Shown: positions 9,236 through 33,023, counted from the stretch's first letter. The stretch is 35,848 nt of DNA from Sandaracinaceae bacterium (GCA_044220955.1 JBGAQA010000073.1:1-35848); one strand, 5' to 3'. Numbers and translations are program-made. Notes: generated by a model from the sequence alone, not told the origin.

Positions 9236-9270
9236 CGGCAAGCAGTGCGGAGCGCGCGCACCGTTTGCGC
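9236..9270. promoter_or_regulatory. tandem GCGCA-N5-TGCGC activator sites
   Basis: CGGCA-AGCAG-TGCGG (9236-9250, degenerate) and perfect GCGCA-CCGTT-TGCGC (9256-9270). Confidence 0.7.
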
Positions 9271-9300
9271 GCTCGCGCGGCGAACGCGGCGCCGTGGGGT

Positions 9301-9316
9301 GGGTGCGCGCGTTGCA
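9301..9316 (+). promoter_or_regulatory. sigma54 -24/-12 promoter for usp-ATPase
   Basis: GGGTGCGCGCGTTGCA = GG-N10-GC with perfect TTGCA, 24 nt before ATG 9340. Confidence 0.6.
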
Positions 9317-9339
9317 TCGACCGAGCGGGAGGCTGGGAC

Positions 9340-9903
9340 ATGGACAACGGACTGGACACCTATCGCGTCGTGGTCGGGCACGACCTCACGGCTGCCGGCA
9401 ACGAGGCCCTCGAGCAGGCGGTCGCGCTCGTGCGGCGGATTCCCGGCTCGGAGGTCCACGTCGTCCACGCCCTCTCGCGTCCGTCCCCCACGAACGTGGC
9501 GGGCAACGACCGCCGTCTCGAGGCGGCGCTCGGCGCGCTCAAGGCGCGCGTCCAGGCGGTCCTCGCGCGCGACCCGTCGGTCAAGGCCCGCGTCCACGTC
9601 CGCTTCGGCAAGGTCGCCGAGACGATCCTCGAGGTCGCCATCGACTACGACGCGGACGTCGTGCTGGTCGGCACCCACGGCCGTCGGGGGCTCGACCGTG
9701 TGGGACGACGCTCCGTCGCCGAGAAGCTCGTCCGCACCGCGCCGCTACCCGTGCTCGTCGCGCACGCCAAGGACTTCACCGGTCTTCCCCTGACGGCGCG
9801 GGCCCCGCGGTCGCACGCCGCCGAGGCTCACCCTCGCGCGCGCGCCCTCAGCGAGCTCGTCGTGCTCCCGGAGCACGGCTGGCACGCCTCGGGTGTGGCC
9901 TGA
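9340..9903 (+). CDS. universal stress protein (single USP domain)
   Basis: YRVVVGHDLT...ALEQA, VHVVH, GKVAETILEVA, ADVVLVGTHGRRG, SVAEKLVRTAPLPVLV. GGGAGG RBS. Confidence 0.9.
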   Translation: MDNGLDTYRVVVGHDLTAAGNEALEQAVALVRRIPGSEVHVVHALSRPSPTNVAGNDRRLEAALGALKARVQAVLARDPSVKARVHVRFGKVAETILEVAIDYDADVVLVGTHGRRGLDRVGRRSVAEKLVRTAPLPVLVAHAKDFTGLPLTARAPRSHAAEAHPRARALSELVVLPEHGWHASGVA

Positions 9904-10533
9904 ATGCAGTCTTCCCTCGCAGGGAACCGCGAGTGCCGCTGCGCCCGGCCGCACGTGCCGCGGCTCGTCGCCGTCACGGGCGGCCCGGGCGCGGGGAAGA
10001 CCGCGGTGCTCGAGGTGGCGCGCCGCATCTACTGCTCGCACGTGCTCGTCCTGCCGGAGTCCGCCACCATCGTGTACGGGGGCGGCTTCCCGCGCCTCGA
10101 CACGCCCGCGGCGAAGCGGCGCGCTCAGATCGCCATCGCGCACATCCAGGACCAGATGGAGCGCATCGAGCTGGACGAGGGCCGCGCAGGCCTCGTCATC
10201 TGCGACCGCGGCATCCTCGACGGCCTGGCGTACTGGCCCCACGACGAGACCAGCTACTTCCACGAGGTCCACCTCGGTCGCGCCGAGGCGCTCGCACGCT
10301 ACGCCGCGGTGCTGCACCTGCGGCCGCCCGCGGACGGGCACGGGTACGATCACGACAACCGCCTGCGCATCGAGACGGCGCGCGAAGCGGCCGACATCGA
10401 CGCGCGGATCGAGCGCGCCTACGCCGGCCACCCCGACCGGCACTTCGTGGACAGCACCGCCGACTTCATCGACAAGATCGCGACCGCGACGGCGATCCTC
10501 GATCGCTACGTGCCCGCGTGCTGTCGGAGCTGA
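9904..10533 (+). CDS. P-loop ATP-binding protein (AAA_28 / NadR-like kinase family)
   Basis: Walker A VAVTGGPGAGKT, 'LPESAT', 'ICDRGILDGLAYW', 'RIETAREA..ID'. Abuts the upstream stop (TGA ATG). Confidence 0.85.
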   Translation: MQSSLAGNRECRCARPHVPRLVAVTGGPGAGKTAVLEVARRIYCSHVLVLPESATIVYGGGFPRLDTPAAKRRAQIAIAHIQDQMERIELDEGRAGLVICDRGILDGLAYWPHDETSYFHEVHLGRAEALARYAAVLHLRPPADGHGYDHDNRLRIETAREAADIDARIERAYAGHPDRHFVDSTADFIDKIATATAILDRYVPACCRS

Positions 10534-11004
10534 TCACTTCTTCGCGTCCTTCGGGCGCGGCACGGTGAGCACCGGGACCGGGCAGGTCCTGACCACCCGC
10601 TCCGCGACGCTCCCGAGCACGAGGTGCGAGAGCCCGGTGCGCCCGTGCGTGCCCATGACCACGAGGTCGGCCGAGAGCTCCTCGACCGCGCGCACGACCT
10701 CGATCGCCGGCAGCCCCTCTCGCACGCGTCCCGAGGGCTCCACGCCCCGACCCCGGTACTTCGCGACCAGCGCGTCGAGCTGCCCCTTCAGCGCGTCCTC
10801 CACGCGCATCATCACGTCCACGTTGAACGTCAGCGCGCCGTCCGGCACGGCGTAGACCGGGATCTCCCACGCGTGGAGGAAGTGGACCGGCACCTCGAGC
10901 CGTCTGGCGAGATCCACCGCGTAGTCGGCGGCGTGATCCGAGCAAGGCGAGAAGTCGACCGGGCAGAGGATGCGCGTGATGCGAGACATGAGCTCAGCCT
11001 TCAT
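10534..11004 (-). CDS. universal stress protein (single USP domain)
   Basis: RILCPVDFSPCSDHA, FLHAW, ADLVVMGTHGRTGLSHLVLGSVAERVVRTCPVPVLTV. Start is the ATGA overlap at 11004 or ATG 10989. Confidence 0.93.
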   Translation of the reverse strand: MKAELMSRITRILCPVDFSPCSDHAADYAVDLARRLEVPVHFLHAWEIPVYAVPDGALTFNVDVMMRVEDALKGQLDALVAKYRGRGVEPSGRVREGLPAIEVVRAVEELSADLVVMGTHGRTGLSHLVLGSVAERVVRTCPVPVLTVPRPKDAKK

Positions 11005-11888
11005 TCCGAGACGGGGACCCGCGCCACCAGCACCGGTACGTGGCTCGCGCGGGTGACGCGCTCCGCGACACTGCCGAGCAAGAAGTGGTCGACGCCGGTC
11101 TTGCCCGTCGTCCCGACGACGACGAGATCGGCTTCGACCTCCGTCGCGGCGCGCAGGATCTCGACGTCCGGCACCCCGCGCCGCAGGTGCCGCAGGAGCG
11201 TCCGCCCCGGCGTCTCGTGCCGGTGCGCCGTGGCGTCGAGCTCGCGGCCCATGTCGCGCTCGATCGACTCGAGCAGCTCGGGCATGCGCGCGACGTAGGG
11301 TGCGACGTGCCACGCGTGGACGACGTGCAGCCGCGCGTCGTGGGCGCGCGAGATCGCGCTCGCCCGCTGCAGCGCGAGCCCCGAGGGTGGCGCGAAGTCC
11401 AGCGCACAGACGACGTTCCGGATCCGGGTGCGCGCCGGCGCGTGCTCGCCCGGCGCCGGGACGACCAGCACGTCGAGGCCGCTGGTGCGCACGACGCGCT
11501 CCGCGGTGCTGCCGAGCAGGAACCGGGGAAGGACGCCGCGACCGGTCGCGCCGACCGCGATCCGCGTGCAGTCGCGCGCCTTCGCCTCCGCCACGATGGC
11601 GCTCGCGGGCGCGCCCTCGACGACGTGCGGGTGGACCGCGACCGGGCCGTGCGCGTGGCGCTCGACGGCCTTGCGCAGCGCCTCCTCGTGCTCGGCGCGC
11701 AGGCGTGCGTCGAAGTCGGCCGCGAGGACGGCTTCACCCGACAACACGGGCGTTCTCGGGAGCGAGATCGCGTGCACCGCGTGGACGATGGGCTCGTGCT
11801 CCTTGCTCGCGAGCACGACTGCGAACTCCAGCGCCGCGAGCGAAGCGGGGGAGAAGTCGATGGCGGTGAGGGTGCGTGAAGCGGTCAT
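11001..11888 (-). CDS. tandem-domain universal stress protein
   Basis: Two USP domains, each with xDFS/DFA and G..G.....LLGS.AERV.R motifs. Confidence 0.93.
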   Translation of the reverse strand: MTASRTLTAIDFSPASLAALEFAVVLASKEHEPIVHAVHAISLPRTPVLSGEAVLAADFDARLRAEHEEALRKAVERHAHGPVAVHPHVVEGAPASAIVAEAKARDCTRIAVGATGRGVLPRFLLGSTAERVVRTSGLDVLVVPAPGEHAPARTRIRNVVCALDFAPPSGLALQRASAISRAHDARLHVVHAWHVAPYVARMPELLESIERDMGRELDATAHRHETPGRTLLRHLRRGVPDVEILRAATEVEADLVVVGTTGKTGVDHFLLGSVAERVTRASHVPVLVARVPVSE

Positions 11889-11915
11889 GGAAGGATCCTC
11901 TCCGAGATCGACACC

Positions 11916-12314
11916 TCAGAAACCACGGACGTCGTCGAGCACCAGATGGCGCAAGAGCAGATGCAGCGCGTCCGTCGTGGTGAAGATGCCGACCACCTTA
12001 CCCGCTTCGACCACGATGGCCGACCCCAGCTTGCGTGCCGCCATCGCGGCGACGACGTCCTTCAGATCTTCGTCCGTGTGAACGACGAAGGGCTCGGGCG
12101 TCATCACGTCACCGACCAGGACGTGCTCGCCCTTCGCGACCGACTCGACGAGGCGCGCATCGCGATCGCTCAGCAGCCCGACGAGCTGGGCGCCCGAGAG
12201 GACCGGGAGGTGGCGCACCTGGGCTCGACGCATGCGGCGGTTGGCCTCGTCGATCGATTGCTCCGCGCCGATCGTCTCGGGCGCCGGGGTCATCAGCTCG
12301 CGTACGCTCGTCAT
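11916..12314 (-). CDS. CBS-domain pair protein
   Basis: VRELMTPAP...VRHLPV...LVGLLSDRD and VGDVMTPEP...GSAIVVE.GKVVGIFTTTD. GGGGAGA RBS. Confidence 0.92.
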   Translation of the reverse strand: MTSVRELMTPAPETIGAEQSIDEANRRMRRAQVRHLPVLSGAQLVGLLSDRDARLVESVAKGEHVLVGDVMTPEPFVVHTDEDLKDVVAAMAARKLGSAIVVEAGKVVGIFTTTDALHLLLRHLVLDDVRGF

Positions 12315-12338: not shown

Positions 12339-12354
12339 TGCACCGTCCGTTCCA
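12339..12354 (-). promoter_or_regulatory. sigma54 promoter for the CBS-usp-usp operon
   Basis: Minus strand TGGAACGGACGGTGCA (consensus TGGCACG-N4-TTGCW). Confidence 0.8.
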
Positions 12355-12405: not shown

Positions 12406-12442
12406 GCGCAGTTCGTGCGCCCGGCACGCGCAGAATCTGCGC
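12406..12442. promoter_or_regulatory. two perfect GCGCA-N5-TGCGC sites shared by divergent sigma54 promoters
   Basis: GCGCA-GTTCG-TGCGC (12406-12420) and GCGCA-GAATC-TGCGC (12428-12442), 22 bp apart. Confidence 0.8.
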
Positions 12443-12483: not shown

Positions 12484-12499
12484 TGGCACGTGCCTCGCT
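12484..12499 (+). promoter_or_regulatory. sigma54 promoter for the sigma70-usp-HK(-ntrC) operon
   Basis: TGGCACGTGCCTCGCT, with a perfect -24 box and GG-N10-GC spacing. Confidence 0.8.
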
Positions 12500-12526: not shown

Positions 12527-13336
12527 ATGCCCACGACACCGACGAAGTCGCTCGACGCGCGCACGCCCCGCAGCGAGCCCCCGATGCTCGAGGCCGAGCG
12601 CGAGCGGGATCTCCTGGCGCTCGCCCAGGGGGGTGATCGTGCCGCGCAGAGCGAGCTCGTGTCGGCCCACCTCCGGCTCGTGCGCGCGGTCGCGCGCCGC
12701 GTGACGCACTCGCCGACCGAGGACGCCATCGCGGAGGGCGTCGTGGGCCTGCTCGAGGCGATCCAGCGCTTCGACGCGTCGCGCGGCTGCCGGCTGGCGA
12801 CGTACGCGGCGCACTGGATCCGCGCGAGGGTTCAGCGATTCGTGCTGTCCAACCGCGGCATCGTGGGCTCCCCCGACACGCGCGCCTCGCGCCGCGTCTT
12901 CGGGCGCCTCGCGCGCGTCCAGCGCGTCCTCGCGACACGCACGAGCCGCCCCGGGCTCGACGAGATCGCCGAGGAGATCGGCGTGCACGTCTCCGACGTC
13001 GAGGGCGTGATGTCGACGCTGCGCGGGCGCGACGTGCCGATCGACACGACGCGGGACGCGGGCGCCGAAGAGGTGTGGATCTCCGAGGGCCCGGAGGATC
13101 GCTTCGCGGAGGCCGAGCTGGCCGAGGCGCGTCGCCGCGTGATCGCGGGGGTCCTCGCGTTGCTCCCCGAGCGTGAGCGTCGCGTGGTGCAGGAGCGGGC
13201 GCTGGCCGAGGACGGCGCGACGCTCGATCAGCTCGCGATCACGCTGGACCTCTCTCGCGAGCGCGTTCGGCAGCTCGAGGTCCGCGCGCTGCGCCGGATC
13301 GGCGATGCGCTCGTGGTCGAGGGCCTCGCTGCGTGA
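12527..13336 (+). CDS. sigma-70 family RNA polymerase sigma factor, RpoH/sigma32-like
   Basis: LVSAHLRLVRAVARR, EGVVGLLEAIQRFDASRGCRLATYAAHWIRA, degenerate RpoH box (ASRRVFGRL), region 4 LPERERRV...TLDQLA..LDLSRERVRQLEVRAL. GGAGG RBS. Confidence 0.9.
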   Translation: MPTTPTKSLDARTPRSEPPMLEAERERDLLALAQGGDRAAQSELVSAHLRLVRAVARRVTHSPTEDAIAEGVVGLLEAIQRFDASRGCRLATYAAHWIRARVQRFVLSNRGIVGSPDTRASRRVFGRLARVQRVLATRTSRPGLDEIAEEIGVHVSDVEGVMSTLRGRDVPIDTTRDAGAEEVWISEGPEDRFAEAELAEARRRVIAGVLALLPERERRVVQERALAEDGATLDQLAITLDLSRERVRQLEVRALRRIGDALVVEGLAA

Positions 13337-14187
13337 GCCCATCGTCGCTGCGACCCGACACGATCTACGTCGGCGTCGACGGTAGCGAAGGCGACGCGCA
13401 GGTCGCCGAGGTGGCGCTCGACGTCGCGCGGGATCTGGGTGCGAAGCTCGTGCTCGTGCGCGCGATCGATCGCGGCGCCGACGACGACACGGCGACCCCC
13501 GCCACACTGGCCCACGTGGCGCTGGCGGAGCGCGTCCACGAGCGAACGCGCGAGGCGGAGAGGCTCCTCGAGTCGCTCCGGTCGCGGCTCGTCGCGCGTG
13601 CCGGGGGGAGCGTCGCGGTCGAGGCACGCCTCGTCGACGGCCACCCCTTCGAGGCGCTGATCGAGGCGGCTGCCGCGGGGGCGAGCACGTGGATCGCCGT
13701 GGGCGCGCGGCGCACGACCCGCGTGCTCGGGCGGACGGTCGACCTCGTGCTGAGGCGCGCGAGCCGGCCGGTCCTGGTCGTCCCGGACGCTGGCTCCTGG
13801 GGCGCGGGTCCGGTGCTCGCGGCGATCGACGCGGGCGAGCTCGACGGCGCGGTGCTCGGCGTCGCCGATGGGCTCGCGCGTACCCTCTCCCGGCGCCTCG
13901 GCATCACGCACGTGCGCACCAGCGGCGACGACTCCGCGATGCTCCGAGTCACGGAGCACACCCGCGAAGTGGCGGCCGGCATCGCCGCGAGCGCGACCAT
14001 CAGCGTCATGCGCGTCGAGCGCTCGATCGCGCAGACGCTCGCCGATCACGCGCGCCGCACCGGAACCGCGCTGCTCGTCGTCGGCACCCACGGACGTCGT
14101 GGCGTCGAGCGCTGGGTGCTCGGCAGCACGGCGGAGGCGCTGGTCCACGAGTCGCCGGTTCCCTTCCTCGTGGTGCGCGCCCCATGA
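13333..14187 (+). CDS. tandem-domain universal stress protein
   Basis: IYVGVDGSE...; LLVVGTHGRRGVERWVLGSTAEALVHESPVPFLVV. GTGA overlap with the sigma stop. Confidence 0.88.
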   Translation: MSPSSLRPDTIYVGVDGSEGDAQVAEVALDVARDLGAKLVLVRAIDRGADDDTATPATLAHVALAERVHERTREAERLLESLRSRLVARAGGSVAVEARLVDGHPFEALIEAAAAGASTWIAVGARRTTRVLGRTVDLVLRRASRPVLVVPDAGSWGAGPVLAAIDAGELDGAVLGVADGLARTLSRRLGITHVRTSGDDSAMLRVTEHTREVAAGIAASATISVMRVERSIAQTLADHARRTGTALLVVGTHGRRGVERWVLGSTAEALVHESPVPFLVVRAP

Positions 14188-14891
14188 CCCTCGTGCGGGC
14201 GCCGAGCCGAAGCCTCGAGGCGACGCGCACGCTGACGGCCGGGCTCGCCCACGAGATCCGGAATCCGCTCCACGGAGCCCTCTTGCACACGCGCGTCCTC
14301 GAGCGCGAGCTCGCGGGCGCGCCCGTGTCGGCTGGCGCGCGCGCGTCGGTCCGCACGATCGAGCACGAGCTCCGGCGCATCGCGGCGTTCCTCGACGAGT
14401 TCGTGGAGTTCGCGCGGCCCCAGCCCCTGGTCCTCGAGCGCGTCTCGCTCGAGCGGATCTGCCGGAGGGCGGCCGAGGTCACGGGACCGCTCGCCGAGCG
14501 CGCCGGGGTGTCGGTCGACGTCGCGCTCGCGTCGGGCGACCTCGAGGTGGACGCGGACCGCGAGCGCCTCTGCATGGCGATCGCGAACCTCGTCACGAAC
14601 GCGATCGAGTCGATCGCCGCCTCCGGCCGGCCGGGTCGAGTGATCGTGCGCGTGCGCAGCGCGGGCGTGTCCGCGTGCGTGGAGGTCGAGGACGACGGAC
14701 CGGGCCTGCGTGACGAGGGCGCGCGCATCTTCGACGTCTTCTTCTCGACCAAGCCCGACGGCACGGGGCTGGGCCTGCCAGTCGCGCATCGCATCGTGTG
14801 CGATCACGGCGGCGAAGTGGTCGTGGAGGCGCAGCCCGGGGCGACCGTGTTCCGGGTCTTGCTCCCGCCGCCGTCCGAGGCGGCCACCTGA
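14184..14891 (+). CDS. histidine kinase (HisKA + HATPase only, no sensor domain)
   Basis: [12 protein letters not shown]-box about 20 aa from the start, [10 protein letters not shown]-box, [26 protein letters not shown] overlap with the USP stop. Confidence 0.88.
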
Positions 14892-14944: not shown

Positions 14945-16330
<1,386 letters not shown>

Positions 16331-16598: not shown

Positions 16599-18023
16599 TC
16601 AGCGCGGGCCGAGGAGCTGCGCCGTCTCGCGCAGCTCGACGTGATCGCCCTCGTCCTCGGCGCTCGCCGTGATCGTGAGGAGCGCACCGTCCACGAACGC
16701 CGCGCGCGGGCCGACCGCGATCACCGTCATCGGGTGGTTCTCGAGCGGGTCGAGCGCCAGGTCGCCCTCGAGGCTCACCTCGACACCCTCGGGGGCCTGC
16801 GCCGCGAGGTGAAGGGTCAGCGGGTGGTCCTGCTTGTTGATCACGTGCAGCTCGAACGTGTTGCGGATGGTGTCGCCGTCCGCGATGTACGGCATGCCGC
16901 GCATGCGCACGAGGTTGGCCTCGAAGGGCGTGCGGCTGCGCAGGGCGAAGAACGCGACCGTCGCGCCGAGCAGGCCCATCCCGACGTAGGCGAAGACACG
17001 GGGACGCAGCCAGTGGCGCTTCTCGCCGCGCAGCGAGCGCAGTGAGTCCCAGCGCACCAGGCCGCGCGGCTGCTTGAGCTTGTCCATCACGTCGTCGCAA
17101 GCGTCGATGCACTGCGTGCAGCCGATGCAGTCGAGCTGCAGGCCGTTGCGGATGTCGATGCCCGTCGGGCAGACGACGACGCAGCGGTCGCAGTCCACGC
17201 ACGAGCCGTGGCCCGCGCGATCCTTGCCCTTGCCGCGCGGCTCGCCGCGGAGCGCGTCGTAGCCGACGACCATCGTGTCGTCGTCGGTGAGGATCGACTG
17301 CAGTCGCCCGTACGGACAGACGATCAGGCAGAGCTGCTCGCGGAACCACGCGAAGTTGCCGTAGAGGAGCGCGGTCATCACGACGACCCAGGCGAACGCC
17401 GTCGGATGCTCGGCGGGGCTCGAGCGCACCATGACGAGCAGGGACGGAATCGACACGAAGAGCGCGAGGAACGCGTGCGCGACCAGGAGCGCGGCCACGA
17501 CGAAGAGGGCGTGCTTGAGGATCTTCTTGCCCCAGAAGCGCCCGTCGCGCGGGCCCGCGTTGAGCCGCATCCGCTCGTTGCGGGGGCCCTCGATGAGCCG
17601 CTCGATCGGGCGGAACACACCCTCGAGGAACACCGTCTGCGGGCACGCCCACGCGCACCACACGCGGCCGAGGACGGTCGTGACGAAGAGCAGCGCGAAG
17701 AGCAGCCCGCTCGCGAGGAAGAACGCGAGCCAGAAGTCCTGCGCGTTGTAGGCGCTCCCGAAGAGGAAGAAGCGACGCTCCGGCACGTCGAGGAAGAGGG
17801 CCGGCCGGCCCGCGATGCGGATCCAGGGCAGGAACACGAGGATCACCCCGAGCACCGCGAACACGACGTGACGCGCGCGCGTGAAGCGCCCGCGCACGTC
17901 GGCCGGATGGACGATCTCGCGACCGCCGTCGCTCCGGAGCGACGAGCGGCCCTGCGTCACGGGCAGGTGGTGCTTGCCGTCCGCGCTCGCGATCGGGACC
18001 TTCTCACCCGGGCGGGACGGCAT
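16599..18023 (-). CDS. ccoG: cbb3 oxidase accessory protein CcoG (FixG; cupric reductase, 4Fe-4S)
   Basis: GRVWCAWACPQTVF, FREQLCLIVCPYGRLQS, CVDCDRCVVVCPTGIDIRNGLQLDCIGCTQCIDACD. Confidence 0.96.
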   Translation of the reverse strand: MPSRPGEKVPIASADGKHHLPVTQGRSSLRSDGGREIVHPADVRGRFTRARHVVFAVLGVILVFLPWIRIAGRPALFLDVPERRFFLFGSAYNAQDFWLAFFLASGLLFALLFVTTVLGRVWCAWACPQTVFLEGVFRPIERLIEGPRNERMRLNAGPRDGRFWGKKILKHALFVVAALLVAHAFLALFVSIPSLLVMVRSSPAEHPTAFAWVVVMTALLYGNFAWFREQLCLIVCPYGRLQSILTDDDTMVVGYDALRGEPRGKGKDRAGHGSCVDCDRCVVVCPTGIDIRNGLQLDCIGCTQCIDACDDVMDKLKQPRGLVRWDSLRSLRGEKRHWLRPRVFAYVGMGLLGATVAFFALRSRTPFEANLVRMRGMPYIADGDTIRNTFELHVINKQDHPLTLHLAAQAPEGVEVSLEGDLALDPLENHPMTVIAVGPRAAFVDGALLTITASAEDEGDHVELRETAQLLGPR

Positions 18024-18684
18024 CGGTGCTCGGGCCCTCCGAGCCGGGCTCGCTGCTGGGGGGAGGCGGCGCCACGCCTTCGGAGCCCGTGCCCGGCGGC
18101 GTGGCCGGCGCAGCGGCGGGAGCGGCGCCCGGGACGTAGACCTCGCCCTCGGCCGGCCGGCCCTGCACGTTCGTGTCGCGCACGGTCAGCAGGAACGCGA
18201 CCACGGCCTGAAGCGAGCGGTCGCCGAGCACCGGGCCCCACTGGGGCATCCCTCGGGCGCTGACGCCGTCGCGGACGGTCGCGAAGACGTCCGTCGGAGC
18301 GCCGCCGTGGATCCAGCGGTCGTCGGTGAGGTTCGGGCCGATGTTGCCCTGCGCCTGGTCGCCGTGGCAGACGACGCAGTTCGCGACGAAGACGTCGTGC
18401 CCGCTCGCGACGGTCGTCGCGTCCTGGGAGAGCGTCACGAGGACGTCGTCCGTCATCTCGCCGCCCGCCGTCGCGCGCTCCGACATCTCCGCCGCGTAGA
18501 TCTCGCGGGTATCGGGGGCCAGCTGCCAGTTCTCGTACACCTGGTAGTAGCCGAGCGCGAAGACGACGGTCCCGAAGAAGGTCGCGAGCCACCATCGCGG
18601 GAGCTGGTTGTCCGCCTCCTCGATCCCGTCGTACTCGTGGACGATCTCGCCCTGGATCGGGTCGTGTTTGCGCGTCTCGCTCAT
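18004..18684 (-). CDS. ccoP: cbb3-type cytochrome c oxidase subunit III, single heme
   Basis: HEYDGIEEADNQLPRWW N-terminal domain, one CVVCH, GPNLTD..WIHGG, GMPQWG. Confidence 0.93.
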   Translation of the reverse strand: MSETRKHDPIQGEIVHEYDGIEEADNQLPRWWLATFFGTVVFALGYYQVYENWQLAPDTREIYAAEMSERATAGGEMTDDVLVTLSQDATTVASGHDVFVANCVVCHGDQAQGNIGPNLTDDRWIHGGAPTDVFATVRDGVSARGMPQWGPVLGDRSLQAVVAFLLTVRDTNVQGRPAEGEVYVPGAAPAAAPATPPGTGSEGVAPPPPSSEPGSEGPSTDAVPPG

Positions 18685-18884: not shown

Positions 18885-18886
18885 GC

Positions 18887-24665: not shown

Positions 24666-24685
24666 CGCGGGCGATCGTCCACCCC

Positions 24686-25819
24686 GTGCCGAAGTCGAAG
24701 CAGAACCGTGTCCTCGTGGTCGACGACAACGCCGACAACCGCCTGCTCGTGGTCGAGACCCTCGCGCCGGAGGGCATGGAGGTCGTCGAGGCCGACTCCG
24801 GCGCCGCCGCGATCGGGCTGTTCTCCGCGCGACCCTTCGACGTCGTGCTGCTCGACGTGCGCATGCCGGGCCTCGACGGGTTCGCCACGCTCGAGCGCCT
24901 GCGTGACCTGCCCGGCGGCACGGACGTGCCGGTCGTCTTCCTCACGGCGCTCCGCGACGTCGAGACCTTCGATCGCGCGCGCGCGGCCGGCGCGGTCGAC
25001 TTCCTCAACAAGCCCGTCCGCCCGACGGAGCTGCTCGCCCGCGTCGAGACGCTGCTGCGCGTGCGGCGCCTGAGCGTGGAGGTCCGCGGACAGCTGGCGG
25101 AGATCCGCCGGCAGCGCGACGATCTCATGCGCGTCCAGCTCCAGAAGGAGCGGCTCGCGGCGTTCATCGTGCACGACCTGAAGAACCCGCTCGCGGCGAT
25201 GCGCCTGCACGCCACCGTGATCGGGCGGACGCCGGAGCTGCCCGTCTCCGCGAAGGAGTCGGCCGTCGCGATCCGTGAGCAGTGCGACCGCCTCGGACAG
25301 CTGGTGATGAACCTGCTCGACCTCTCCAAGGCCGACGAGGGGCTGCTGGTCGCGCGCCGCTCCGACGTGGACCTGCCTGCGCTCGCGGTCGAGGTGCTCG
25401 CCGAGCTCGGGGTGCAGGCCGACGCGCGCCGCGTGGCGCTCAAGGTCGAGATCGCCGAGGGGCTGCACCTCGACGCCGACCGCGACCTCTTGCGCCGCAT
25501 CCTCGAGAACCTCGTCGACAACGCGCTCCGGCACACGCCCGCGGGGGGCGCGGTGCGGATCGAGGCCGAGCGGGGCGCCGATGCGACCCGCCTGCGCGTG
25601 CGCGACACGGGTCCGGGGATCCCGGCCGGGCTCGCCGACCGGATCTTCGACCCCTTCGTGCAGGTGGACGGCGGAATCGGTGCGACGCGCTCCGGCCGAG
25701 GCCTGGGGCTGGCGTTCTGTCGTGCCGCAGCCCTCGCGCACGGCGGGGCGATCGCGGTCGAGCCGAGCGCGTCGGGGGCGTGCTTCGTCCTCACCCTCCC
25801 GCACGAGCTGCTCTCGTGA
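24686..25819 (+). CDS. response regulator receiver–histidine kinase hybrid
   Basis: VLVVDDN, VLLDVRMP, FLNKP; IVHDLKNPL, ENLVDNALRH, VRDTGPG, GRGLGL. Confidence 0.93.
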   Translation: MPKSKQNRVLVVDDNADNRLLVVETLAPEGMEVVEADSGAAAIGLFSARPFDVVLLDVRMPGLDGFATLERLRDLPGGTDVPVVFLTALRDVETFDRARAAGAVDFLNKPVRPTELLARVETLLRVRRLSVEVRGQLAEIRRQRDDLMRVQLQKERLAAFIVHDLKNPLAAMRLHATVIGRTPELPVSAKESAVAIREQCDRLGQLVMNLLDLSKADEGLLVARRSDVDLPALAVEVLAELGVQADARRVALKVEIAEGLHLDADRDLLRRILENLVDNALRHTPAGGAVRIEAERGADATRLRVRDTGPGIPAGLADRIFDPFVQVDGGIGATRSGRGLGLAFCRAAALAHGGAIAVEPSASGACFVLTLPHELLS

Positions 25820-25839: not shown

Positions 25840-27747
25840 ATGGATCTCGCGGAGCTCGTCGGCGTCGCCCTCTTCGACGCCGCGCCGGACGCGATGCTGC
25901 TCGTGGACGAGGCCGGCACCATCGTCCTGGTCAACGAACAGACGGAGCGCGTCTTCGGGTTCTCGCGGGCCGAGCTGGTCGGCAAGCCGATCGAGGCCCT
26001 GATCCCCTCTCGCTTCCGCGAGGGGCACCTCGTGCACCGGCAGAACTACGGCAAGGCGGCGCGCACCCGCGCGATGGGCATCGGCCTCGAGCTCTGGGGC
26101 CAGCACAGGGACGGCCGCGAGATCCCGGTCGAGATCGCGCTCGCGCCCATCACGACGCCGCGCGGGCGCTACGTGTCGGCCGCGGTCCGCGACATCAGCG
26201 CGCGGCGCGCGATCGAGGACAAGGCCCGTGTCACGCACGAGCGCCTGCTCAGCGCGCTCGAGAGCGTGCAGGACGCGATCGCGATCTTCGACGCCGACGA
26301 CCGCCTCGTGCTCTGCAACAGCGTGTACCGGTGCAGCCTCCCGACCACGTGGACCGGTCCCGTCGTCGGGGCCTCGTACGCGACCTTGCTCGACGCGGAG
26401 CTCGAGACGCTCGATCTCGGCGGCGACACCCTCGAGTCGACGCGCGCGCGCCGCATGGCGTACCACGACGCCCCGACCGGCAGCATCGACGTTCGCACCC
26501 GCGACGGCCGCTCGCTCCGCGTGGTCGACCGGATCACTCCCGAGCGCGGGCGGGTGCGGACCATCTACGACCTCACCGACGACGTCCGTCGGCAGACCGA
26601 GCTCGACGACGCACGGCGCACGGCCGAGGCCGCGAACGCCGCCAAGACGGAGTTCCTGCGCTCGATGAGCCACGAGCTGCGCACGCCGCTGAACGCGGTG
26701 CTCGGCTTCACGCAGCTCATCCAGCGCGATCCGACGCTCGGCGAGCGGCCCAAGCGCCTCGTCGAGCACGTCGCCCGCGGGGGCGAGCACCTGCTGAGGC
26801 TCATCGACGACGTGCTCGACCTCGCGCGCGTCGAGGCCGGCGCCGTGCCGCTCTCGCTCGAGCCCGTGGCCCTGAGCACCGTCCTGGCGGAGGTGCGCAC
26901 GACGCTCGCGGCCATGGCCCAGACGCGCCACATCCGGGTCATGCTCGACGAGGACAACGAGCCGCTGGTCGCGCACGCCGATCGCACGCGGCTGGTGCAG
27001 ATCGTCCTCAACTTCGGCTCGAACGCAATCAAGTACGGCAAGACCGAGGGGGAGGTCGTCCTGCGCGCAGGCCGCACCGGCGATCGCGCGCGCATCAGCG
27101 TGCGTGACGACGGGCCGGGGATCCCGCGTGCTCGCCAGGACCGCCTGTTCCAGGTGTTCTACCGGGCTGGGCAGGAGACGGGGCCCATCGAGGGCACCGG
27201 CATCGGCCTCGCGCTGAGCCAGCGCCTCGCGAGCATGATGGAGGGCCGCGTCGGCTTCGAGAGCCAGGAGGGCGCGGGCTCCGAGTTCTGGGTCGAGCTC
27301 CCGCTCGAGCGCGCGCAGAGCACGCCGACGTTCGAGCGCGGTGAGGGGGGCGCCCGCCGGGAGGGCGCGCTGCGGGACGCGACGGTCCTCTACGTCGAGG
27401 ACAACCCCGCGAACCTCGCGTTCATGGAAGAGCTGATGATGGACTTCCCGCACGTGCAGCTGCTCACCGCGCCGACGGGGGAGCTGGGGCTCGACCTCGC
27501 GGTCGCCGTCGTGCCCACCGTCGTGATCCTGGACATCAACCTGCCGGGCATGAGCGGCTTCGAGGTGCTCCGGCACCTGCGAGCGAACGAGCGCACGAGG
27601 GCCATCCCGGTCGTGGCGCTCAGCGCGTCCGCCATGCAGCGCGACGTCCGACGCGCCGAGGAGGCGGGCTTCGCCCGCTACCTGACCAAGCCCGTCAAGG
27701 TCGACGAGCTCGTCTCGACGCTCGAGTCGCTCCTCGAGCGACGCTGA
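25840..27747 (+). CDS. PAS-PAS-HisKA-HATPase-REC hybrid sensor kinase, first PAS FixL-like
   Basis: PAS 'LIPSRFREGHLVHRQNY...RAMG.GLEL.G..RDG.EIPVEIAL', second PAS, MSHELRTPLN, NAIKY, GTGIGL, REC ILDINLP...YLTKP. Confidence 0.92.
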   Translation: MDLAELVGVALFDAAPDAMLLVDEAGTIVLVNEQTERVFGFSRAELVGKPIEALIPSRFREGHLVHRQNYGKAARTRAMGIGLELWGQHRDGREIPVEIALAPITTPRGRYVSAAVRDISARRAIEDKARVTHERLLSALESVQDAIAIFDADDRLVLCNSVYRCSLPTTWTGPVVGASYATLLDAELETLDLGGDTLESTRARRMAYHDAPTGSIDVRTRDGRSLRVVDRITPERGRVRTIYDLTDDVRRQTELDDARRTAEAANAAKTEFLRSMSHELRTPLNAVLGFTQLIQRDPTLGERPKRLVEHVARGGEHLLRLIDDVLDLARVEAGAVPLSLEPVALSTVLAEVRTTLAAMAQTRHIRVMLDEDNEPLVAHADRTRLVQIVLNFGSNAIKYGKTEGEVVLRAGRTGDRARISVRDDGPGIPRARQDRLFQVFYRAGQETGPIEGTGIGLALSQRLASMMEGRVGFESQEGAGSEFWVELPLERAQSTPTFERGEGGARREGALRDATVLYVEDNPANLAFMEELMMDFPHVQLLTAPTGELGLDLAVAVVPTVVILDINLPGMSGFEVLRHLRANERTRAIPVVALSASAMQRDVRRAEEAGFARYLTKPVKVDELVSTLESLLERR

Positions 27748-27765: not shown

Positions 27766-30342
27766 ATGTTCCGCTCGCTCCTGCGCCACTCCGACCTCCG
27801 GGCACGCCCGGCCGCGGTACGTCCTGCCTGGTGGAGCCGGACGCGCGACGAGCTCGCGCGCGAGGTCGGATGCGATCCTGGCCGCGGACTCGACGACGCG
27901 GAGGTCGAGCGCCGGCGGCGCATCCACGGCCCGAACACGCTCGAGCCCGAGCGGCGCCCGAGCTGGCTGGGCGCGCTCCTGGACCAGCTGCGTAGCCCGC
28001 TCGTTCTCTTGCTCGTCGTCGCTGCCGTCATCTCCGCCGTCGCGCGCGAGTGGACCGATGCCGTCGTCGTCGTCTCGATCGTGCTCGGCAGCGCGATGCT
28101 GGGCACGTTCCACGAGTACCGCGCGAGCGCCGCCGTGGAGAAGCTGCGCGCGCAGGTGCTCGTTCGCGCGACGGTGCTGCGCAACGGCGTCTTCACGCAG
28201 CTCCCGGCCGCCGCGATCGTCCCGGGGGACGTGGTCCGCCTCGGGGCGGGGAGCCTCGTCCCGGGCGACGCGGTCCTGCTCGAGACCAAGGACCTCTTCG
28301 TCGCGGAGGCGGCGTTGACCGGAGAGTCGTTCCCGATCGAGAAGGAGGTCGGCGTCTCGGGCGCCGACGCCTCCGTCGCCGAGCGTCGCGGCGCGCTGTT
28401 CCTCGGGAGCTCGGTGCAGAGCGGAACGGGCCTGGCGCTCGTCGTGGCGACGGCGCGCGCGACCGAGCTCGGCGCGATCGCGCACCGGCTCGCGACGCGT
28501 GCACCCGAGAGCGCGTTCGAGTCGGGGATCCGCCGCTTCGGCGCCTTGCTCATGCGCGTCATGGCCCTGCTCACGTTCGTCGTGCTCGCGGCGAACCTCT
28601 TGCTCGCGCGACCTGCGATCGAGTCGCTGCTCTTCGCCATCGCGCTGGCCGTGGGGATCTCGCCGGAGATGCTGCCCGCGATCCTCGCCGTGACGCTCTC
28701 GCGGGGTGCCGTGCGCATGGCGGAGCGTGGCGTGATCGTGAAGCGGCTCGCGGCCATCGAGGGACTCGGAGCGATGGACGTCCTGTGCACGGACAAGACC
28801 GGCACCCTGACCGAGGGCGTCGTGCGTCTGGACGGCGCGCTCGACGCGTCGGGCCATCCCTCGGACGAGGTGCTCGGCCTCGCGCTCGTGAACGCCACGC
28901 TCCAGGCGGGCATGCCGAACCCGCTCGACGCGGCGATCCGCGAGGGCGCCCGGATGCGCGAGGTCGACCTCGGCGACGCGACGAAGTGCGACGAGATCCC
29001 CTACGACTTCGCGCGCAAGCGGCTCGGCGTCGTCGTCGCGCGAGGGCCCGATCGGACCCTGGTCGTCAAGGGAGCGCTCCGGAGCGTCCTCGACGTCTGC
29101 ACGACGGTCGAGGAGCCCTCGGGTCGGGTCGGCATCGACGCGCGCCGCGGCGCGATCGACGCACGGCTCGACGCCTGGAACGCGAAGGGCTTCCGGGTCC
29201 TCGGCGTGGCCACCAAGACGGTGGACGCCAAGGAGCGCTACGACGTCGCCGACGAGAGCGGGCTCGCGCTCCGAGGGTTCCTGCTCTTCTTCGACGCGCC
29301 GAAGGCCGACGCGGAGGCCACCGTGCGTGCGCTCGAGGCGCTCGGCATCGGGCTCAAGGTCCTCACGGGCGACAGCCGCGGCTGCGCGGTGCACGTCGCG
29401 AGCGCGGTCGGCATCCCGGTCGAGGGGGTCCTCGTCGGCAGCGAGCTCGCGGCCCTCGGGCCGGAGGCGCTCGCCGCGACCTGCGAGCGCACGACGATCT
29501 TCGCCGAGCTCGACCCGGCCCAGAAGGAGCGCGTGATCCTCGCGCTCGCGAAGCGCGGCCACGTCGTGGGCTACCTCGGTGACGGCATCAACGACGCGCC
29601 CGCGCTGCACGCGGCCGACGTCGCGATCTCGGTCGATGGCGCCGCGGACGTCGCGAAGGAGGCCGCCGACTTCGTCCTCGGTCGCCGCGACCTCGACGTG
29701 CTGCGCGCCGGCGTCGAGGCCGGGCGCGTCACCTTCGCGAACACGCTCAAGTACGTGCGGACGACCGTGAGCGCGAACTTCGGGAACATGGTGAGCATGG
29801 CGTTCGCGTCGGCGTGGCTCCCGTTCCTCCCACTGGCCGCGGGCCAGATCCTGCTCAACAACTTCCTCTCGGACGTCCCGCAGACGTTCATCGCCTCGGA
29901 CGCCGTCGATCCCGAGGTCACCGCGCGACCGGGTCGCTGGAACGTGCGGGCCATCCGCGACTTCATGGTGGTCTTCGGGCTCGTGAGCTCGGCGTTCGAC
30001 ATCCTCACCTTCGTCGCGCTCCGCTACGCGTCGGCGACGCTCGACGAGTTCCGCACCGCGTGGTTCGTCGAGTCCCTGCTGACCGAGCTCGGCATCGCGC
30101 TCGTGGTGCGGACGAGCCGGCCGGCCTACAGGAGCCGGCCCGCCCGGGCGCTCGTCCTCTCGACGGGGGCCGTGACGTTGGTGGCGCTGCTCTCGCCTTA
30201 CCTACCGTACGGGTCGACCTTCGGGCTGGTCCCGCTCGAGCCCCGCTGGATCGTCCTGATCACCACGATCGCCGCCCTCTATCTCGTGGCGTCCGAGGTG
30301 ACCAAGCGTCTCTACGTCCGCTTCCGCTCGTTCGAGGGCTGA
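27766..30342 (+). CDS. mgtA: magnesium-translocating P-type ATPase
   Basis: ALTGESFPIEK, AVGISPEMLP, LCTDKTGTLT, DEIPYDF.RKR, GDGINDAPAL, KY...TVSANFGNMVS, QILLNNFLSD, WFVESLLT. Confidence 0.9.
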   Translation: MFRSLLRHSDLRARPAAVRPAWWSRTRDELAREVGCDPGRGLDDAEVERRRRIHGPNTLEPERRPSWLGALLDQLRSPLVLLLVVAAVISAVAREWTDAVVVVSIVLGSAMLGTFHEYRASAAVEKLRAQVLVRATVLRNGVFTQLPAAAIVPGDVVRLGAGSLVPGDAVLLETKDLFVAEAALTGESFPIEKEVGVSGADASVAERRGALFLGSSVQSGTGLALVVATARATELGAIAHRLATRAPESAFESGIRRFGALLMRVMALLTFVVLAANLLLARPAIESLLFAIALAVGISPEMLPAILAVTLSRGAVRMAERGVIVKRLAAIEGLGAMDVLCTDKTGTLTEGVVRLDGALDASGHPSDEVLGLALVNATLQAGMPNPLDAAIREGARMREVDLGDATKCDEIPYDFARKRLGVVVARGPDRTLVVKGALRSVLDVCTTVEEPSGRVGIDARRGAIDARLDAWNAKGFRVLGVATKTVDAKERYDVADESGLALRGFLLFFDAPKADAEATVRALEALGIGLKVLTGDSRGCAVHVASAVGIPVEGVLVGSELAALGPEALAATCERTTIFAELDPAQKERVILALAKRGHVVGYLGDGINDAPALHAADVAISVDGAADVAKEAADFVLGRRDLDVLRAGVEAGRVTFANTLKYVRTTVSANFGNMVSMAFASAWLPFLPLAAGQILLNNFLSDVPQTFIASDAVDPEVTARPGRWNVRAIRDFMVVFGLVSSAFDILTFVALRYASATLDEFRTAWFVESLLTELGIALVVRTSRPAYRSRPARALVLSTGAVTLVALLSPYLPYGSTFGLVPLEPRWIVLITTIAALYLVASEVTKRLYVRFRSFEG

Positions 30343-30412
30343 ACGGGCCCGCCGGCCGCCCCCCCGTCCGGCCGGGCTTGCGGCCACGCGAACCGTGCTG
30401 AAATCGAGGCCC

Positions 30413-31582
30413 ATGGCCGCCGACTCGCTCCGCGTGCTCGTCGTCGACGACGACGACGTCGATGCGCTGCTGCTCACCGAGAACCTGGCCGAGGGCTGGC
30501 GCGCGCCGCTGCGGTTCTCCCGCGCGCGGAGCGGGGCCGAGGCGCTGGCCGCGCTCCAGACCGAGGTGTTCGACCTCTGCCTGCTGGACTATCGCCTCGG
30601 CAGCGAGTCCGGGATCACCGTGCTCGCGTCGATCCGCGTTCTCACGGACGAGCTCCCCGTCGTCGTGCTCACCTCCGCACCGGCCCACGAGGTCGACGTC
30701 GCCGCGAGCGAGGTCGGGGCCGACGACTACCTCGACAAGGCTCGCCTGAGCCCCTTCGTGCTCGAGCACAGCGTCCGCTACGCTCGGAGTCACCGCAGCG
30801 TCCTGCGCCAGCTACGGGCGCGGAACCGCGAGCTCGCGCGCCTCGACCGCGAGAAGAACGTCCTGCTCGGCATGGCGGCCCACGATCTGCGCAACCCGAT
30901 CGGCGTGGTGCGCGGCTACGCCGAATTCCTGTCCGCGCACCTCGCCGAGATCGACGCGGCCGAGACGCTCGAGATCCTCGAGACGATGCGCAGCTCCTGC
31001 TCGCAGATGTCCGGCCTCATCGACGATCTGCTCGACGTGTCTTCCATCGAGGCGGGCACGCTCATCCTCCGCAGGACGAGCGTGGATCTCGCGCAGCTGG
31101 CGCGCGACGTGATCGCACAGCAGGCGACGGTCGCCGACGCGAAGAAGCTCTCGCTCGAGCTCGCCGCCGAGGAGCTCCCGATGGTCTCGCTCGACCACGC
31201 CCGCTTCGAGCAGGTGCTCTCCAACCTGGTGAGCAACGCCATGAAGTACTCGAACGCCGGCGCGAAGGTCGTCGTCCACCTCTCGCGCCTCGACGACGCG
31301 CACGTCCGCGTCGCCGTCGAGGATCACGGCATCGGCATCGCGGCGGAGTTCCTGCCGCGCCTGTTCCGGCCCTTCCAGCGAGAGCAGCGCGCCGGGACGT
31401 CGGGCGAGAAGAGCACGGGCCTCGGGCTCGCCATCGTCAAGCGCGTCGTCGAGGCGCACGGAGGCACGATCTCGGTGCGCAGCCAGCGCGGCGAGGGCTC
31501 GACGTTCACGGTGGAGCTGCCCATCGCGGACGAGCTCCGGACTTCCGAGGGCGCGTCAGCCGGTGATCGCGTGCGCGAGTGA
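30413..31582 (+). CDS. response regulator receiver–histidine kinase hybrid
   Basis: VLVVDDD, CLLDYRL, YLDK; AAHDLRNPI, NLVSNAMKY, VEDHGIG, STGLGLAIVK. Confidence 0.92.
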   Translation: MAADSLRVLVVDDDDVDALLLTENLAEGWRAPLRFSRARSGAEALAALQTEVFDLCLLDYRLGSESGITVLASIRVLTDELPVVVLTSAPAHEVDVAASEVGADDYLDKARLSPFVLEHSVRYARSHRSVLRQLRARNRELARLDREKNVLLGMAAHDLRNPIGVVRGYAEFLSAHLAEIDAAETLEILETMRSSCSQMSGLIDDLLDVSSIEAGTLILRRTSVDLAQLARDVIAQQATVADAKKLSLELAAEELPMVSLDHARFEQVLSNLVSNAMKYSNAGAKVVVHLSRLDDAHVRVAVEDHGIGIAAEFLPRLFRPFQREQRAGTSGEKSTGLGLAIVKRVVEAHGGTISVRSQRGEGSTFTVELPIADELRTSEGASAGDRVRE

Positions 31583-32848
31583 CGCGAGCTGCTGCGCGTC
31601 GAATGGCTTGCCGAGGAACGCGTTCGCGCCGAGCCGTCCGAGCAGCGACCAGTCCGCCGGGCCACCGATCGCGCTGAGCACGATCACGGGGACGTCGGCG
31701 AGCTCCGGGCGCGCGCGCACCTCGGCCACGAGCTCGACGCCGTTCATCAGCGGCATGTCGAGGTCGGTCACGAGCAGATCCGGGCGGTGACGCAGGGCGG
31801 AGGCGAGGGCCGCTGCGCCGTCCGGCGTCGTCTCGATGGTCGAGCCGCGGAAGCTGCGCGCGAGCGTGCGGCGAACGATGTCGCAGTACGCGGGGTCGTC
31901 GTCCGCGACGAGGATGCGCAGGGGCCGCGTCGGTGGGTGGTGGAGCGGCACCTGCTCGAGCGCGCGCCGCAGGGCGTCGACGCTGGGCGTGCGGACCACC
32001 GGGTCCGAGGCCAGGGCGGCGAGGACGGGCGCGTCGAAATTCGTCCCGAGGCCCGCCCGCAGCTCGCTCGGGTTTCGCGGGACGCGGCCGCTGGCGAGCG
32101 CGTCGAGGCGCTCCGCGTCGCTCGCGAACGGGAGCTGTCCGGTGAGCAGCTCGTAGGCCATGACGCCGATCGAGTAGACGTCGACGCGCTGCGCGAGCTC
32201 CGGCCGGAGCGTCTCTTCGAGGACCAGCTCGGGAGCGCCGTACGCCGGGGTCGACCACCCGGACGGCGGCGCGCCGGCCCGGCGCGAGAGGCCGAAGTCC
32301 GAGATCACGACACGGAACGCGGGCCCGAGCAGCACGTTGCTCGGCTTCAGGTCCGCGTGCACGAGCCCGGCCGCGTGCATGGCCGACGCGCCGCGGCAGA
32401 TCTGATCCAGGATCGCCGTCGTCTGGGCGACGCGCAGCGGCCCGTCGTTCGCGGCCATCATCTTCCCGAGGTCGGTCCCGGGGACGTGCTCCATGACGAT
32501 GTAGGGCAGTCCGTCGGACTCGCCGAGCGCGAGGATGCGTACCACGTGGGGGTGCGCGATCCGGGCCATCGTGCGCGCCTCGGCGCGGAAGCGCTCCAGC
32601 ACGTCGAGCGGAGGGCGCGTGTCCGAGCGGATGAGCTTGATCGCGACGTCACGATCGAGCGACTCGTCGTGCGCGAGGTAGACGCTGCCCATGCCCCCGG
32701 CGCCCAGGAGCCGCACGATGCGGTACGTGTCCAGCCGCGCACCTGGCTCGAGGGGCTTCGGGGGCGGTGCGGCGTTGCGCAGCAGACCGGGGCGCGCGGG
32801 CGCGGTGTGATGCACGAGCGGCGTCTCGTCGCGGTCACGATTGCTCAT
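31556..32848 (-). CDS. Ser/Thr protein kinase fused to a C-terminal receiver domain
   Basis: LGAGGMGSVY, VAIK, RFRAEA, HADLKPSN, DFG, APE, DVYSIG; REC ILVADDD, LVTDLDMP, FLGKP. Confidence 0.92.
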   Translation of the reverse strand: MSNRDRDETPLVHHTAPARPGLLRNAAPPPKPLEPGARLDTYRIVRLLGAGGMGSVYLAHDESLDRDVAIKLIRSDTRPPLDVLERFRAEARTMARIAHPHVVRILALGESDGLPYIVMEHVPGTDLGKMMAANDGPLRVAQTTAILDQICRGASAMHAAGLVHADLKPSNVLLGPAFRVVISDFGLSRRAGAPPSGWSTPAYGAPELVLEETLRPELAQRVDVYSIGVMAYELLTGQLPFASDAERLDALASGRVPRNPSELRAGLGTNFDAPVLAALASDPVVRTPSVDALRRALEQVPLHHPPTRPLRILVADDDPAYCDIVRRTLARSFRGSTIETTPDGAAALASALRHRPDLLVTDLDMPLMNGVELVAEVRARPELADVPVIVLSAIGGPADWSLLGRLGANAFLGKPFDAQQLASLAHAITG

Positions 32849-32932
32849 GGGCAACTCTGCCCTCCAGGCGTGCATGCCGGAACACCTGGGCACGTGCGGA
32901 CCGTCCGCAAGACCCGGCGCGCGCGCGCACGT

Positions 32933-32977
32933 GCGCAGCTCTTGCGCAGCGCCCACGTCGACGCGCAGTGCCTGCGC
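32933..32977. promoter_or_regulatory. two perfect GCGCA-N5-TGCGC sites
   Basis: GCGCA-GCTCT-TGCGC (32933-32947) and GCGCA-GTGCC-TGCGC (32963-32977). Confidence 0.8.
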
Positions 32978-33007
32978 CGGCCGCGCGGGATCGTCGGGGC
33001 CCCGACC

Positions 33008-33023
33008 TGGCACGCTGGCTGCT
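33008..33023 (+). promoter_or_regulatory. sigma54 promoter for hemerythrin-usp-M50 protease
   Basis: TGGCACGCTGGCTGCT. The GC lies 13 nt before ATG 33036. Confidence 0.82.

Follow-up and report, generated by a model that had tools for sequence, protein, structure and literature searches.

What might report low oxygen to a myxobacterial respiratory regulon when the kinase encoded beside its regulator has no sensor domain? The question is raised by a 35,848-bp stretch of a Sandaracinaceae bacterium (GCA_044220955.1, JBGAQA010000073.1:1-35848; in what follows, the window), in which a cbb3 oxidase operon and genes for universal stress proteins (USPs), a CBS-domain protein, a sigma factor, kinases, MgtA, hemerythrin and an M50 protease surround the gene of an NtrC-like activator (14945-16330). 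An original prediction, made from the sequence, held that copies of the palindrome GCGCA-N5-TGCGC between 9236 and 33023 mark a sigma54 low-oxygen regulon of this activator, perhaps orthologous to the NmpRSTU oxygen-sensing system of Myxococcus xanthus and clustered into one island. We conclude that the palindromes are very probably the enhancer sites of an NmpR orthologue encoded at 14945, in a predicted low-oxygen regulon with six sigma54 promoters. The oxygen or redox input may have been re-routed through a predicted heme-PAS hybrid kinase (25840) and a receiver-kinase (REC-kinase, 24647), a proposal that could equally be right or wrong, and the explanation as a whole, regulon and re-routed input together, is just as evenly poised.

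Results

Five perfect palindromes, starting at 9256, 12406, 12428, 32933 and 32963, are present in the window, against a mean of 0.42 in dinucleotide shuffles, none of which reached five in 100. All five are intergenic, as originally proposed, according to our own codon-based gene caller, on which every coding or noncoding assignment here depends. The four proposed near-matches also exist, with one mismatch each at 23874 and 23895 and three each at 9236 and 23916, but by themselves they say little, since the window holds 19 matches with up to one mismatch where 11.7 are expected, a small excess. The GCA-N5-TGC core, which is kept in all M. xanthus sites bound by NmpR (PMC11841059), is broken at 23874 and 23916, so that the cbb3 promoter has the weakest site cluster of the window. 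It contains no perfect site, whereas two of the other clusters contain two and one contains one; in several relatives the region matching 23874-23930 holds perfect sites. The 15-nt gap between palindromes 32933 and 32963 is typical of M. xanthus NmpR promoters (PMC11841059).

Genome-wide scans for single sites carry no information. The 7.5-Mb genome has 110 perfect sites, 91 coding (13.2/Mb) and 19 noncoding (29.6/Mb), and the noncoding density, just 2.2-fold above the coding one, ranks 11th among 60 palindromes of the same composition. Pairs of sites, unlike single ones, are specific to noncoding DNA: at spacer 5 there are six noncoding pairs and one coding pair, and the seven other spacers tested gave two noncoding pairs in sum. 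The expected scarcity of the motif in coding DNA is seen for pairs and hardly for single sites.

Candidate promoters were scored against the sigma54 -24/-12 consensus on an ad hoc scale with a maximum of 8. All six elements named in the original prediction are present, the one at 9301 (+) being weak at -24 (5/8) and the one at 23939 (+) moderate (6/8), and at the window promoters each is oriented to its gene and lies 3' of the sites. In G005, a genome of the same genus, the promoter orthologous to 9301 has a better -24 box, judged by eye, and promoter 12484 (+) is kept with a site pair upstream. The distances from site centre to the GG of the -24 box in the window are 38, 38, 39, 39, 50 and 60 bp. 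In 41 loci of relatives, which are kin and not independent, the surroundings of 78 intergenic sites show sigma54 boxes recurring about every 10 bp, near 39, 50, 62, 70, 80 and 93 bp, with 19 boxes in the 48-51 bp bin where 1.0 is expected. This helical phasing is the strongest sequence evidence for the sites as putative sigma54 enhancers, and the phasing kept across relatives offers an easy criterion by which hypoxia genes of uncultured sludge myxobacteria might be predicted. The genome also encodes rpoN.

Such promoters also occur elsewhere in the genome: site pairs, each with a sigma54 box in phase, precede a type III sulfide:quinone reductase operon (contig C244), a small gene and a USP gene (C264), GroEL and Hsp20 (C290) and one unnamed gene (C263); on C77 a single perfect site, with no sigma54 box within 130 bp, precedes a 2-oxoacid:ferredoxin oxidoreductase operon. 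Paired sites on these four other contigs, a GC content of 0.730 against 0.725 for the genome, and synteny with relatives describe a conserved gene cluster instead of the island first proposed; horizontal acquisition is ruled out by the matching GC and the synteny common to relatives.

Is the 14945 protein an NmpR? The window motif is identical to the published NmpR consensus, which was defined in M. xanthus by electrophoretic mobility shift assays and reporters (PMC11841059). With the nmp locus of M. xanthus AM003 located through the published nmpR primer, the two proteins are reciprocal best matches (53-54%), at 425 bits against 375 in the Sandaracinaceae genome and 490 against 417 in AM003. 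They fall into one NmpR family clade (Shimodaira-Hasegawa-like approximate likelihood ratio test, SH-aLRT, 92; quick tree), and their recognition helices, within the helix-turn-helix (HTH) domain, are equal at nine of ten positions. Published targets comprise CBS and USP genes, the cbb3 operon together with that operon's P-type ATPase, hemN-hemerythrin and the nmp genes themselves; one NmpR-target promoter of M. xanthus is induced in hypoxia (PMC11841059). The cbb3/ccoI, CBS, USP and hemerythrin targets are common to both, as are sigma54 promoters, paired sites and predicted autoregulation. The suspected kinship with the Nmp system, including the comparison of protein and HTH, is thus borne out. 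The motif and core regulon are already known from M. xanthus, and the predicted regulon extends them to another myxobacterial order; the named database homologues of the window indicate a Sandaracinaceae-like bacterium within the Polyangia. Unlike in M. xanthus, most targets are clustered around nmpR here, and additional predicted targets are the RpoH-like sigma factor, MgtA and the M50 protease, and elsewhere in the genome the sulfide:quinone reductase and GroEL/Hsp20. The DosR dormancy regulon of Mycobacterium tuberculosis is alike in content only, with many USPs, a CBS protein and a small heat-shock protein; its regulator family and promoter type are unrelated to those here. The USP link of DosR is stated in PMC11841059.

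The original prediction had set the NtrC-like protein against FNR/FixK and RegA, a contrast that the sequence bears out for FNR and not for RegA. FNR boxes follow the pattern TTGA-N6-TCAA, and FNR proteins are recognized by a Cys cluster; the window has no such box, and of Crp-family proteins the genome has five that pass the cut-off, with one to three Cys each. A full-length RegA/PrrA-like match does exist (178 bits, under the family cut-off of 250). The genome also holds a C-terminal fragment of a second NmpR-family activator (G000:C189, L140:674-1090, minus strand). The contig is 1,091 bp long and contains an N gap; the fragment has a similar recognition helix, its position in the tree is unresolved, it has no separate counterpart in the related genomes G001 or G004, and the contig may be misbinned.

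In M. xanthus the globin kinase NmpU, which is on with oxygen, signals to the NmpS receiver and so turns NmpS off; NmpR is phosphorylated by NmpS alone, whose active form is the one freed of receiver phosphorylation (PMC6211767). The kinase encoded before nmpR in the window (14184-14891) has 235 residues, starts 22 residues before the phospho-His, and has neither globin nor PAS domain; its H, N, G1 and G2 catalytic motifs are intact. Its orthologues are globin-PAS-kinases of about 480-580 residues. It groups with one of these, the 551-residue kinase of G005, where the gene order is as in the window, and with a sensor-less homologue, P0122 (SH-aLRT 97), inside the NmpS clade (95) and away from NmpU (99). 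It thus shares its core with NmpS and differs in having no input domain at all. The predicted cognate kinase has lost two domains that its relatives keep, globin and PAS, and the "different sensors" of the original prediction are found in a sharper form than anticipated.

An assembly artefact is ruled out as the cause of the short kinase, because the USP-kinase junction is crossed, with at least 31 letters on each side, by contigs from five of seven sequencing runs (X1, X3, X4, X5 and X12; it is not covered in X2 and X10, and one run may be the source sample). A globin hidden in the 165 open codons upstream in the kinase frame was likewise rejected, as Pfam gave no match there. Six of the seven strain differences listed in the kinase gene are silent. 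P0122 has 233 residues, a core 50% identical and a homologous start, so that this strain is not alone in having the short form; most other short ones among 110 matches look like fragments or late starts. In the 87.9% complete genome no match to the PF11563 protoglobin was found, and an M. xanthus NmpU query matched kinase cores only; NmpT, with its two receiver domains, had no match at E<1e-8 in the predicted proteome. For NmpS, the genome has an NmpS-clade core without REC and, from another clade, a REC-kinase with NmpS architecture. In the sister genome G004, which is 97% complete, nmpR directly follows the USP gene, and neither a close cognate kinase nor a protoglobin match was found. A small stand-alone match to the PF00042 globin lies at G000:C236:29041-29310 (L193).

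How do relatives feed oxygen into this regulon? An NmpR-type HTH (E<=1e-12) occurs in 24 of 32 family genomes, a count that takes in the genome studied here, the unpublished G043 and some receiver-less paralogues, and in 38 of 251 sampled genomes of the phylum. Four types of input were distinguished: NmpU-NmpT-NmpS as in M. xanthus (G007, G042), NmpU with a REC-PAS-kinase (for example G008, G015 and G202), a single globin-kinase, with or without PAS, adjoining nmpR, and nmpR without an adjacent kinase. In most relatives the relay is replaced by one globin-PAS-kinase with an NmpS-type core beside nmpR. In a search at the level of the order, whose query favoured this clade, all 25 further genomes had a kinase core upstream of nmpR, and there were globin matches in 23 of them and PAS matches in 22; two of the loci ended at a contig edge. 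A PF11563 match was found in 24 of 30 relatives; a metagenome scan gave mostly distant NtrC loci, of which two of 80 were used. In a quick tree of 49 kinase cores, read by SH-aLRT supports only, with no one-clade test and with the G046 kinase left out for lack of a parsed H-box, the globin kinases of relay-less loci group with NmpS (95), apart from NmpU (99). They are scattered, for example with the G142 kinase beside G202's REC-PAS-kinase (94) and the G197 kinase beside the family's NmpS (97), which suggests that the NmpU globin may have been fused to an NmpS core repeatedly.

The N-terminal protoglobin of the relatives' kinases is of the same family as that of NmpU and of AfGcHK, the globin-coupled kinase of Anaeromyxobacter sp. 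Fw109-5 that is switched on by O2 (PMC11841059). The relatives differ in that the globin is fused to PAS and an NmpS-type core, and the window copy is without globin. In contrast to AfGcHK, the fused form would have to be off with O2 to drive a hypoxic regulon. A decay gradient based on a weak globin match in G002 was dropped, the frameshifts of that genome being probably assembly errors (its ccoI is split too). The globin of G005 is 30-38% identical against 42-53% elsewhere, but its core is also lower (47-48% against 53-59%), at most a weak hint of decay. Further variants were seen in passing. NmpR-family activators without a receiver domain by Pfam occur in G012 (L128:12148-13245), where the gene is immediately preceded by two perfect palindromes, and in G006 (L129:5769-6695). 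In G046 a kinase and, apart from it, a protoglobin-STAS protein are encoded near nmpR (L145:8713-10948), a possible further input type. In G505 (L212) nmpR is preceded by a match to globin but none to PAS, and only about 120 residues of kinase core matched.

The receiver of NmpR has changed where the kinase has changed. Of 45 locus rows, 40 have either A-F or A-Y in the loop after the conserved Thr, and the five exceptions (the window, G004, G046, G112 and G212, from two lineages) are exactly the rows in which the cognate kinase is truncated or was not found. The residue at T+2 is Phe or Tyr in 24 of 25 further genomes and Val in one. The T+1 and T+2 residues affect phosphorylation kinetics (PMC12632262). 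Among database homologues of NmpR, P0007, P0020, P0021, P0028, P0041 and others form a subgroup that has Asn or Asp at D+2 and, at T+2, a residue that is not aromatic.

Which kinase might speak to NmpR instead? The genome yielded 59 kinases, 54 of them with an H-box that could be parsed. When these 54 were ranked by a profile of cognate kinases at the specificity positions and offsets of helix 1 given in PMC2991266, REC-kinase 24647 came first and the short kinase 14184 second, and these two alone have L-H at H+11/+12. The core of 24647 belongs to a distant clade in the tree of kinase cores, and L-H is kept in nine of its ten orthologues. The second REC-kinase of the window, encoded within 27766-31582, has specificity residues unlike the cognate set. 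Together, the NmpR loop and the residues of 24647 provide two signals that suggest an altered input. The first PAS domain of the neighbouring hybrid kinase 25840 has its best PDB matches in the heme-PAS sensors FG214 (bioRxiv 10.64898/2026.03.15.711900), FixL and DosP. Its H63 aligns with the proximal H156 of FG214 and the corresponding His of FixL, and its M79 matches M172 of FG214; the distal ligands differ, and heme binding is a prediction from the sequence. FixL-FixJ likewise controls cbb3 (PMC11841059), but here the candidate sensor is a PAS-PAS-kinase-REC hybrid with a REC-kinase partner and a predicted sigma54-activator output.

Of 31 other family genomes, 8 were found to encode the 24647/25840 kinase pair, some of them alongside an intact globin kinase and some not. 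The pair lies beside nmpR in G112, with motif sites, and in G212, with no called site, and a cognate kinase was found in neither; in G004, where it is under the dsbD_2 promoter, the cognate kinase was likewise not found. "Not found" is soft in these comparisons, since the phylum search for PAS hybrids scored 10 candidates per genome and missed the G112 copy, and the kinase search missed a split copy in G267. A paralogue of the PAS-hybrid kinase lies on C77, near a hemerythrin gene, a perfect site and a 2-oxoacid:ferredoxin oxidoreductase-rubrerythrin operon (G000:C77:6411-8729 and 10196-14029).

Discussion

Since the cognate kinase is without globin and PAS domains, the oxygen or redox input has likely been re-routed. 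In the mechanism that we propose, phosphorylated NmpR would bind the paired sites and activate the six sigma54 promoters under hypoxia, and promoter 12484 would provide positive autoregulation of the nmpR operon. The stripped kinase 14184 would no longer read the signal, which would enter instead through the PAS domain of 25840, presumably by way of heme, and pass from this hybrid to REC-kinase 24647 and on to NmpR, a relay that would rebuild the NmpU-NmpS logic from unrelated parts.

Several observations weigh against this re-routing. The profile score uses five helix-1 positions, and both window kinases score 12-13 where intact cognate kinases score 13-23; in G004 the REC-kinase has L-Y instead of L-H. 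The distal His175 of FG214 has no counterpart in the 25840 PAS, which also has Leu where FixL has its distal Arg, and a receiver at the C-terminus of a PAS hybrid would tend to take the phosphate itself. The kinase pair coexists with an intact globin kinase in G001, G011, G035, G036 and G039, three of which have no site in the stretch examined, and G046, with a changed NmpR loop and no cognate kinase match, has no PAS-hybrid match. The loop change at T+2 represents only two independent events, and 26 of 118 parsed database homologues of NmpR are also without Phe there. The genome, finally, is 88% complete and contains a second NmpR-family fragment.

Could oxygen sensing have been dropped altogether? 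The sensor-less kinase might phosphorylate NmpR constantly, with autoregulation keeping the cbb3 and stress genes on, which would suit low-oxygen sludge flocs. This is the strongest of the alternatives, though we consider it rather unlikely. The kinase is catalytically intact, its strain differences are mostly silent, it has a second short counterpart in P0122, and it lies with nmpR behind an NmpR-type promoter; M. xanthus NmpS is active once freed of receiver phosphorylation (PMC6211767), and the runs that contain the stretch are sludge and bioreactor metagenomes. However, G004 keeps nmpR and its sites without such a kinase and would need another source of phosphate, and the specificity residues that 24647 shares with the cognate kinase would be left unexplained. 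Less probable still, and in our view improbable, is that a globin kinase or a second NmpR system lies in the unassembled part of the genome, the short kinase being a decaying leftover. The completeness of 87.9% leaves room for it, and the second activator fragment on the 1.1-kb C189, with its similar recognition helix, could belong to such a system. However, that contig, with its N gap, has no separate counterpart in G001 or G004 and may be misbinned, G004 at 97% completeness is likewise without a protoglobin match, and the short kinase is without signs of decay.

It is also quite improbable that the short kinase is an energy-charge sensor, controlled by the adjacent tandem USP (13333-14187) or by the ATP/ADP ratio. 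The USP stop codon does overlap the kinase start, and the USP-kinase-nmpR order is kept in G005, G002 and G003, but this adjacency is seen beside intact globin kinases and is older than the loss of the sensor. That the palindromes are incidental in GC-rich DNA, with cbb3 under a RegA-like or Crp-family regulator, is scarcely credible in the light of the pair statistics, the helical phasing, the conservation at orthologous promoters, the identity with the tested M. xanthus site, the lack of an FNR box in the window and the few Cys of the Crp-family proteins, despite the 91 of 110 perfect sites in coding DNA, the RegA/PrrA-like protein and the imperfect sites at the cbb3 promoter. RegA might nonetheless play a subsidiary part.

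The re-routed NmpR regulon might be part of a wider history, which we put forward tentatively and regard as more doubtful than the re-routing itself. A conserved oxygen regulon of myxobacteria would have been repeatedly rewired at its input: the inverting relay of three proteins would have given way, more than once, to a globin fused to an NmpS core, with the sign reversed so that O2 switches it off, and in the present lineage the globin would have been discarded, a heme-PAS hybrid and a REC-kinase would have converged on the NmpR specificity residues, and the NmpR loop would have been re-tuned. No description of fused or stripped kinases, or of this regulon in Polyangia, was found in a literature search that left most subscription papers outside; S2 Fig of PMC6211767, on synteny and domain divergence, may show some of the forms. 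What these loci add is a natural series of inputs to a single output, from the full relay through a relay with PAS, a fused globin kinase and a kinase without sensor to the absence of any cognate kinase. With purified proteins it can be tested whether the core to which one and the same globin is fused decides if it activates or silences the kinase, and how a regulator keeps its regulon once the sensor has been lost.

Other features of the window

The predicted sites, promoters and genes are collected in Table 1. The names ccoS and ccoQ rest on position and size alone, Pfam having given no match, and the start of ccoI is either 23600 or 23816.

Table 1. Predicted NmpR-type sites, sigma54 elements and genes, in window coordinates
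Feature	Position	Strand	Basis or remark
Weak distal NmpR-type site	9236..9250	n/a	3 mismatches, core intact; 59 bp to -24 GG
Perfect NmpR-type palindrome	9256..9270	n/a	centre 39 bp from -24 GG
Sigma54 element, weak -24	9301..9316	+	serves USP 9340-9903 and AAA_28 gene 9955-10533
CBS protein and two USP genes, forming a predicted operon under promoter 12354 (-)	10534..12314	-	gene calls and domain search
Sigma54 element	12339..12354	-	60 bp from site 12406
Perfect palindrome	12406..12420	n/a	motif search
Perfect palindrome	12428..12442	n/a	motif search
Sigma54 element	12484..12499	+	sigma factor-USP-kinase-nmpR operon; 50 bp from site
RpoH-like sigma factor, score under family cut-off	12527..13336	+	domain search
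Tandem USP, stop overlaps kinase start	13333..14187	+	domain search
Sensor-less HisKA-HATPase kinase, 235 residues, NmpS-type core	14184..14891	+	domain search, tree
NmpR orthologue: REC D60, T88-S89-D90, K110; GAFTGA 227-232; Fis HTH	14945..16330	+	domain search, reciprocal best match
cbb3 oxidase operon ccoI-ccoS-ccoNO (fused)-ccoQ-ccoP-ccoG	16599..23816	-	domain search
Sigma54 element	23829..23844	-	cbb3 operon; 38 and 59 bp from sites 23874 and 23895
Three imperfect sites	23874..23930	n/a	1, 1 and 3 mismatches
Sigma54 element	23939..23954	+	dsbD_2-kinase-kinase-mgtA run; 38 bp from site 23895
DsbD_2 membrane protein	23967..24665	+	domain search
REC-HisKA-HATPase hybrid, NmpS-like architecture, unrelated kinase clade	24647..25819	+	candidate second NmpR kinase
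PAS-PAS-HisKA-HATPase-REC hybrid, first PAS heme-PAS-like (H63, H66, M79)	25840..27747	+	candidate replacement sensor
MgtA and second REC-kinase	27766..31582	+	regulon membership from co-orientation alone
Perfect palindrome	32933..32947	n/a	motif search
Perfect palindrome	32963..32977	n/a	15-nt gap to palindrome 32933
Sigma54 element	33008..33023	+	39 bp from site
Hemerythrin, tandem USP, M50-CBS protease	33036..35596	+	domain search

Upstream of 23600 the ccoI frame continues across a Cys-rich segment as far as a GTG at 23816, which is about 2 nt past the predicted transcription start and would give a near-leaderless transcript. Between 3201 and 5600 the window has DUF2063, MbnB/TglH/ChrH and TANGO2 genes in a row, which are also found near the locus in G005. 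The gene at 7798-9207 encodes a beta-CASP metallo-hydrolase, whose orthologue in G001 (70%) is clustered with USPs, an RpoH-like sigma factor, the kinase pair and motif sites, and it may be part of the predicted regulon.

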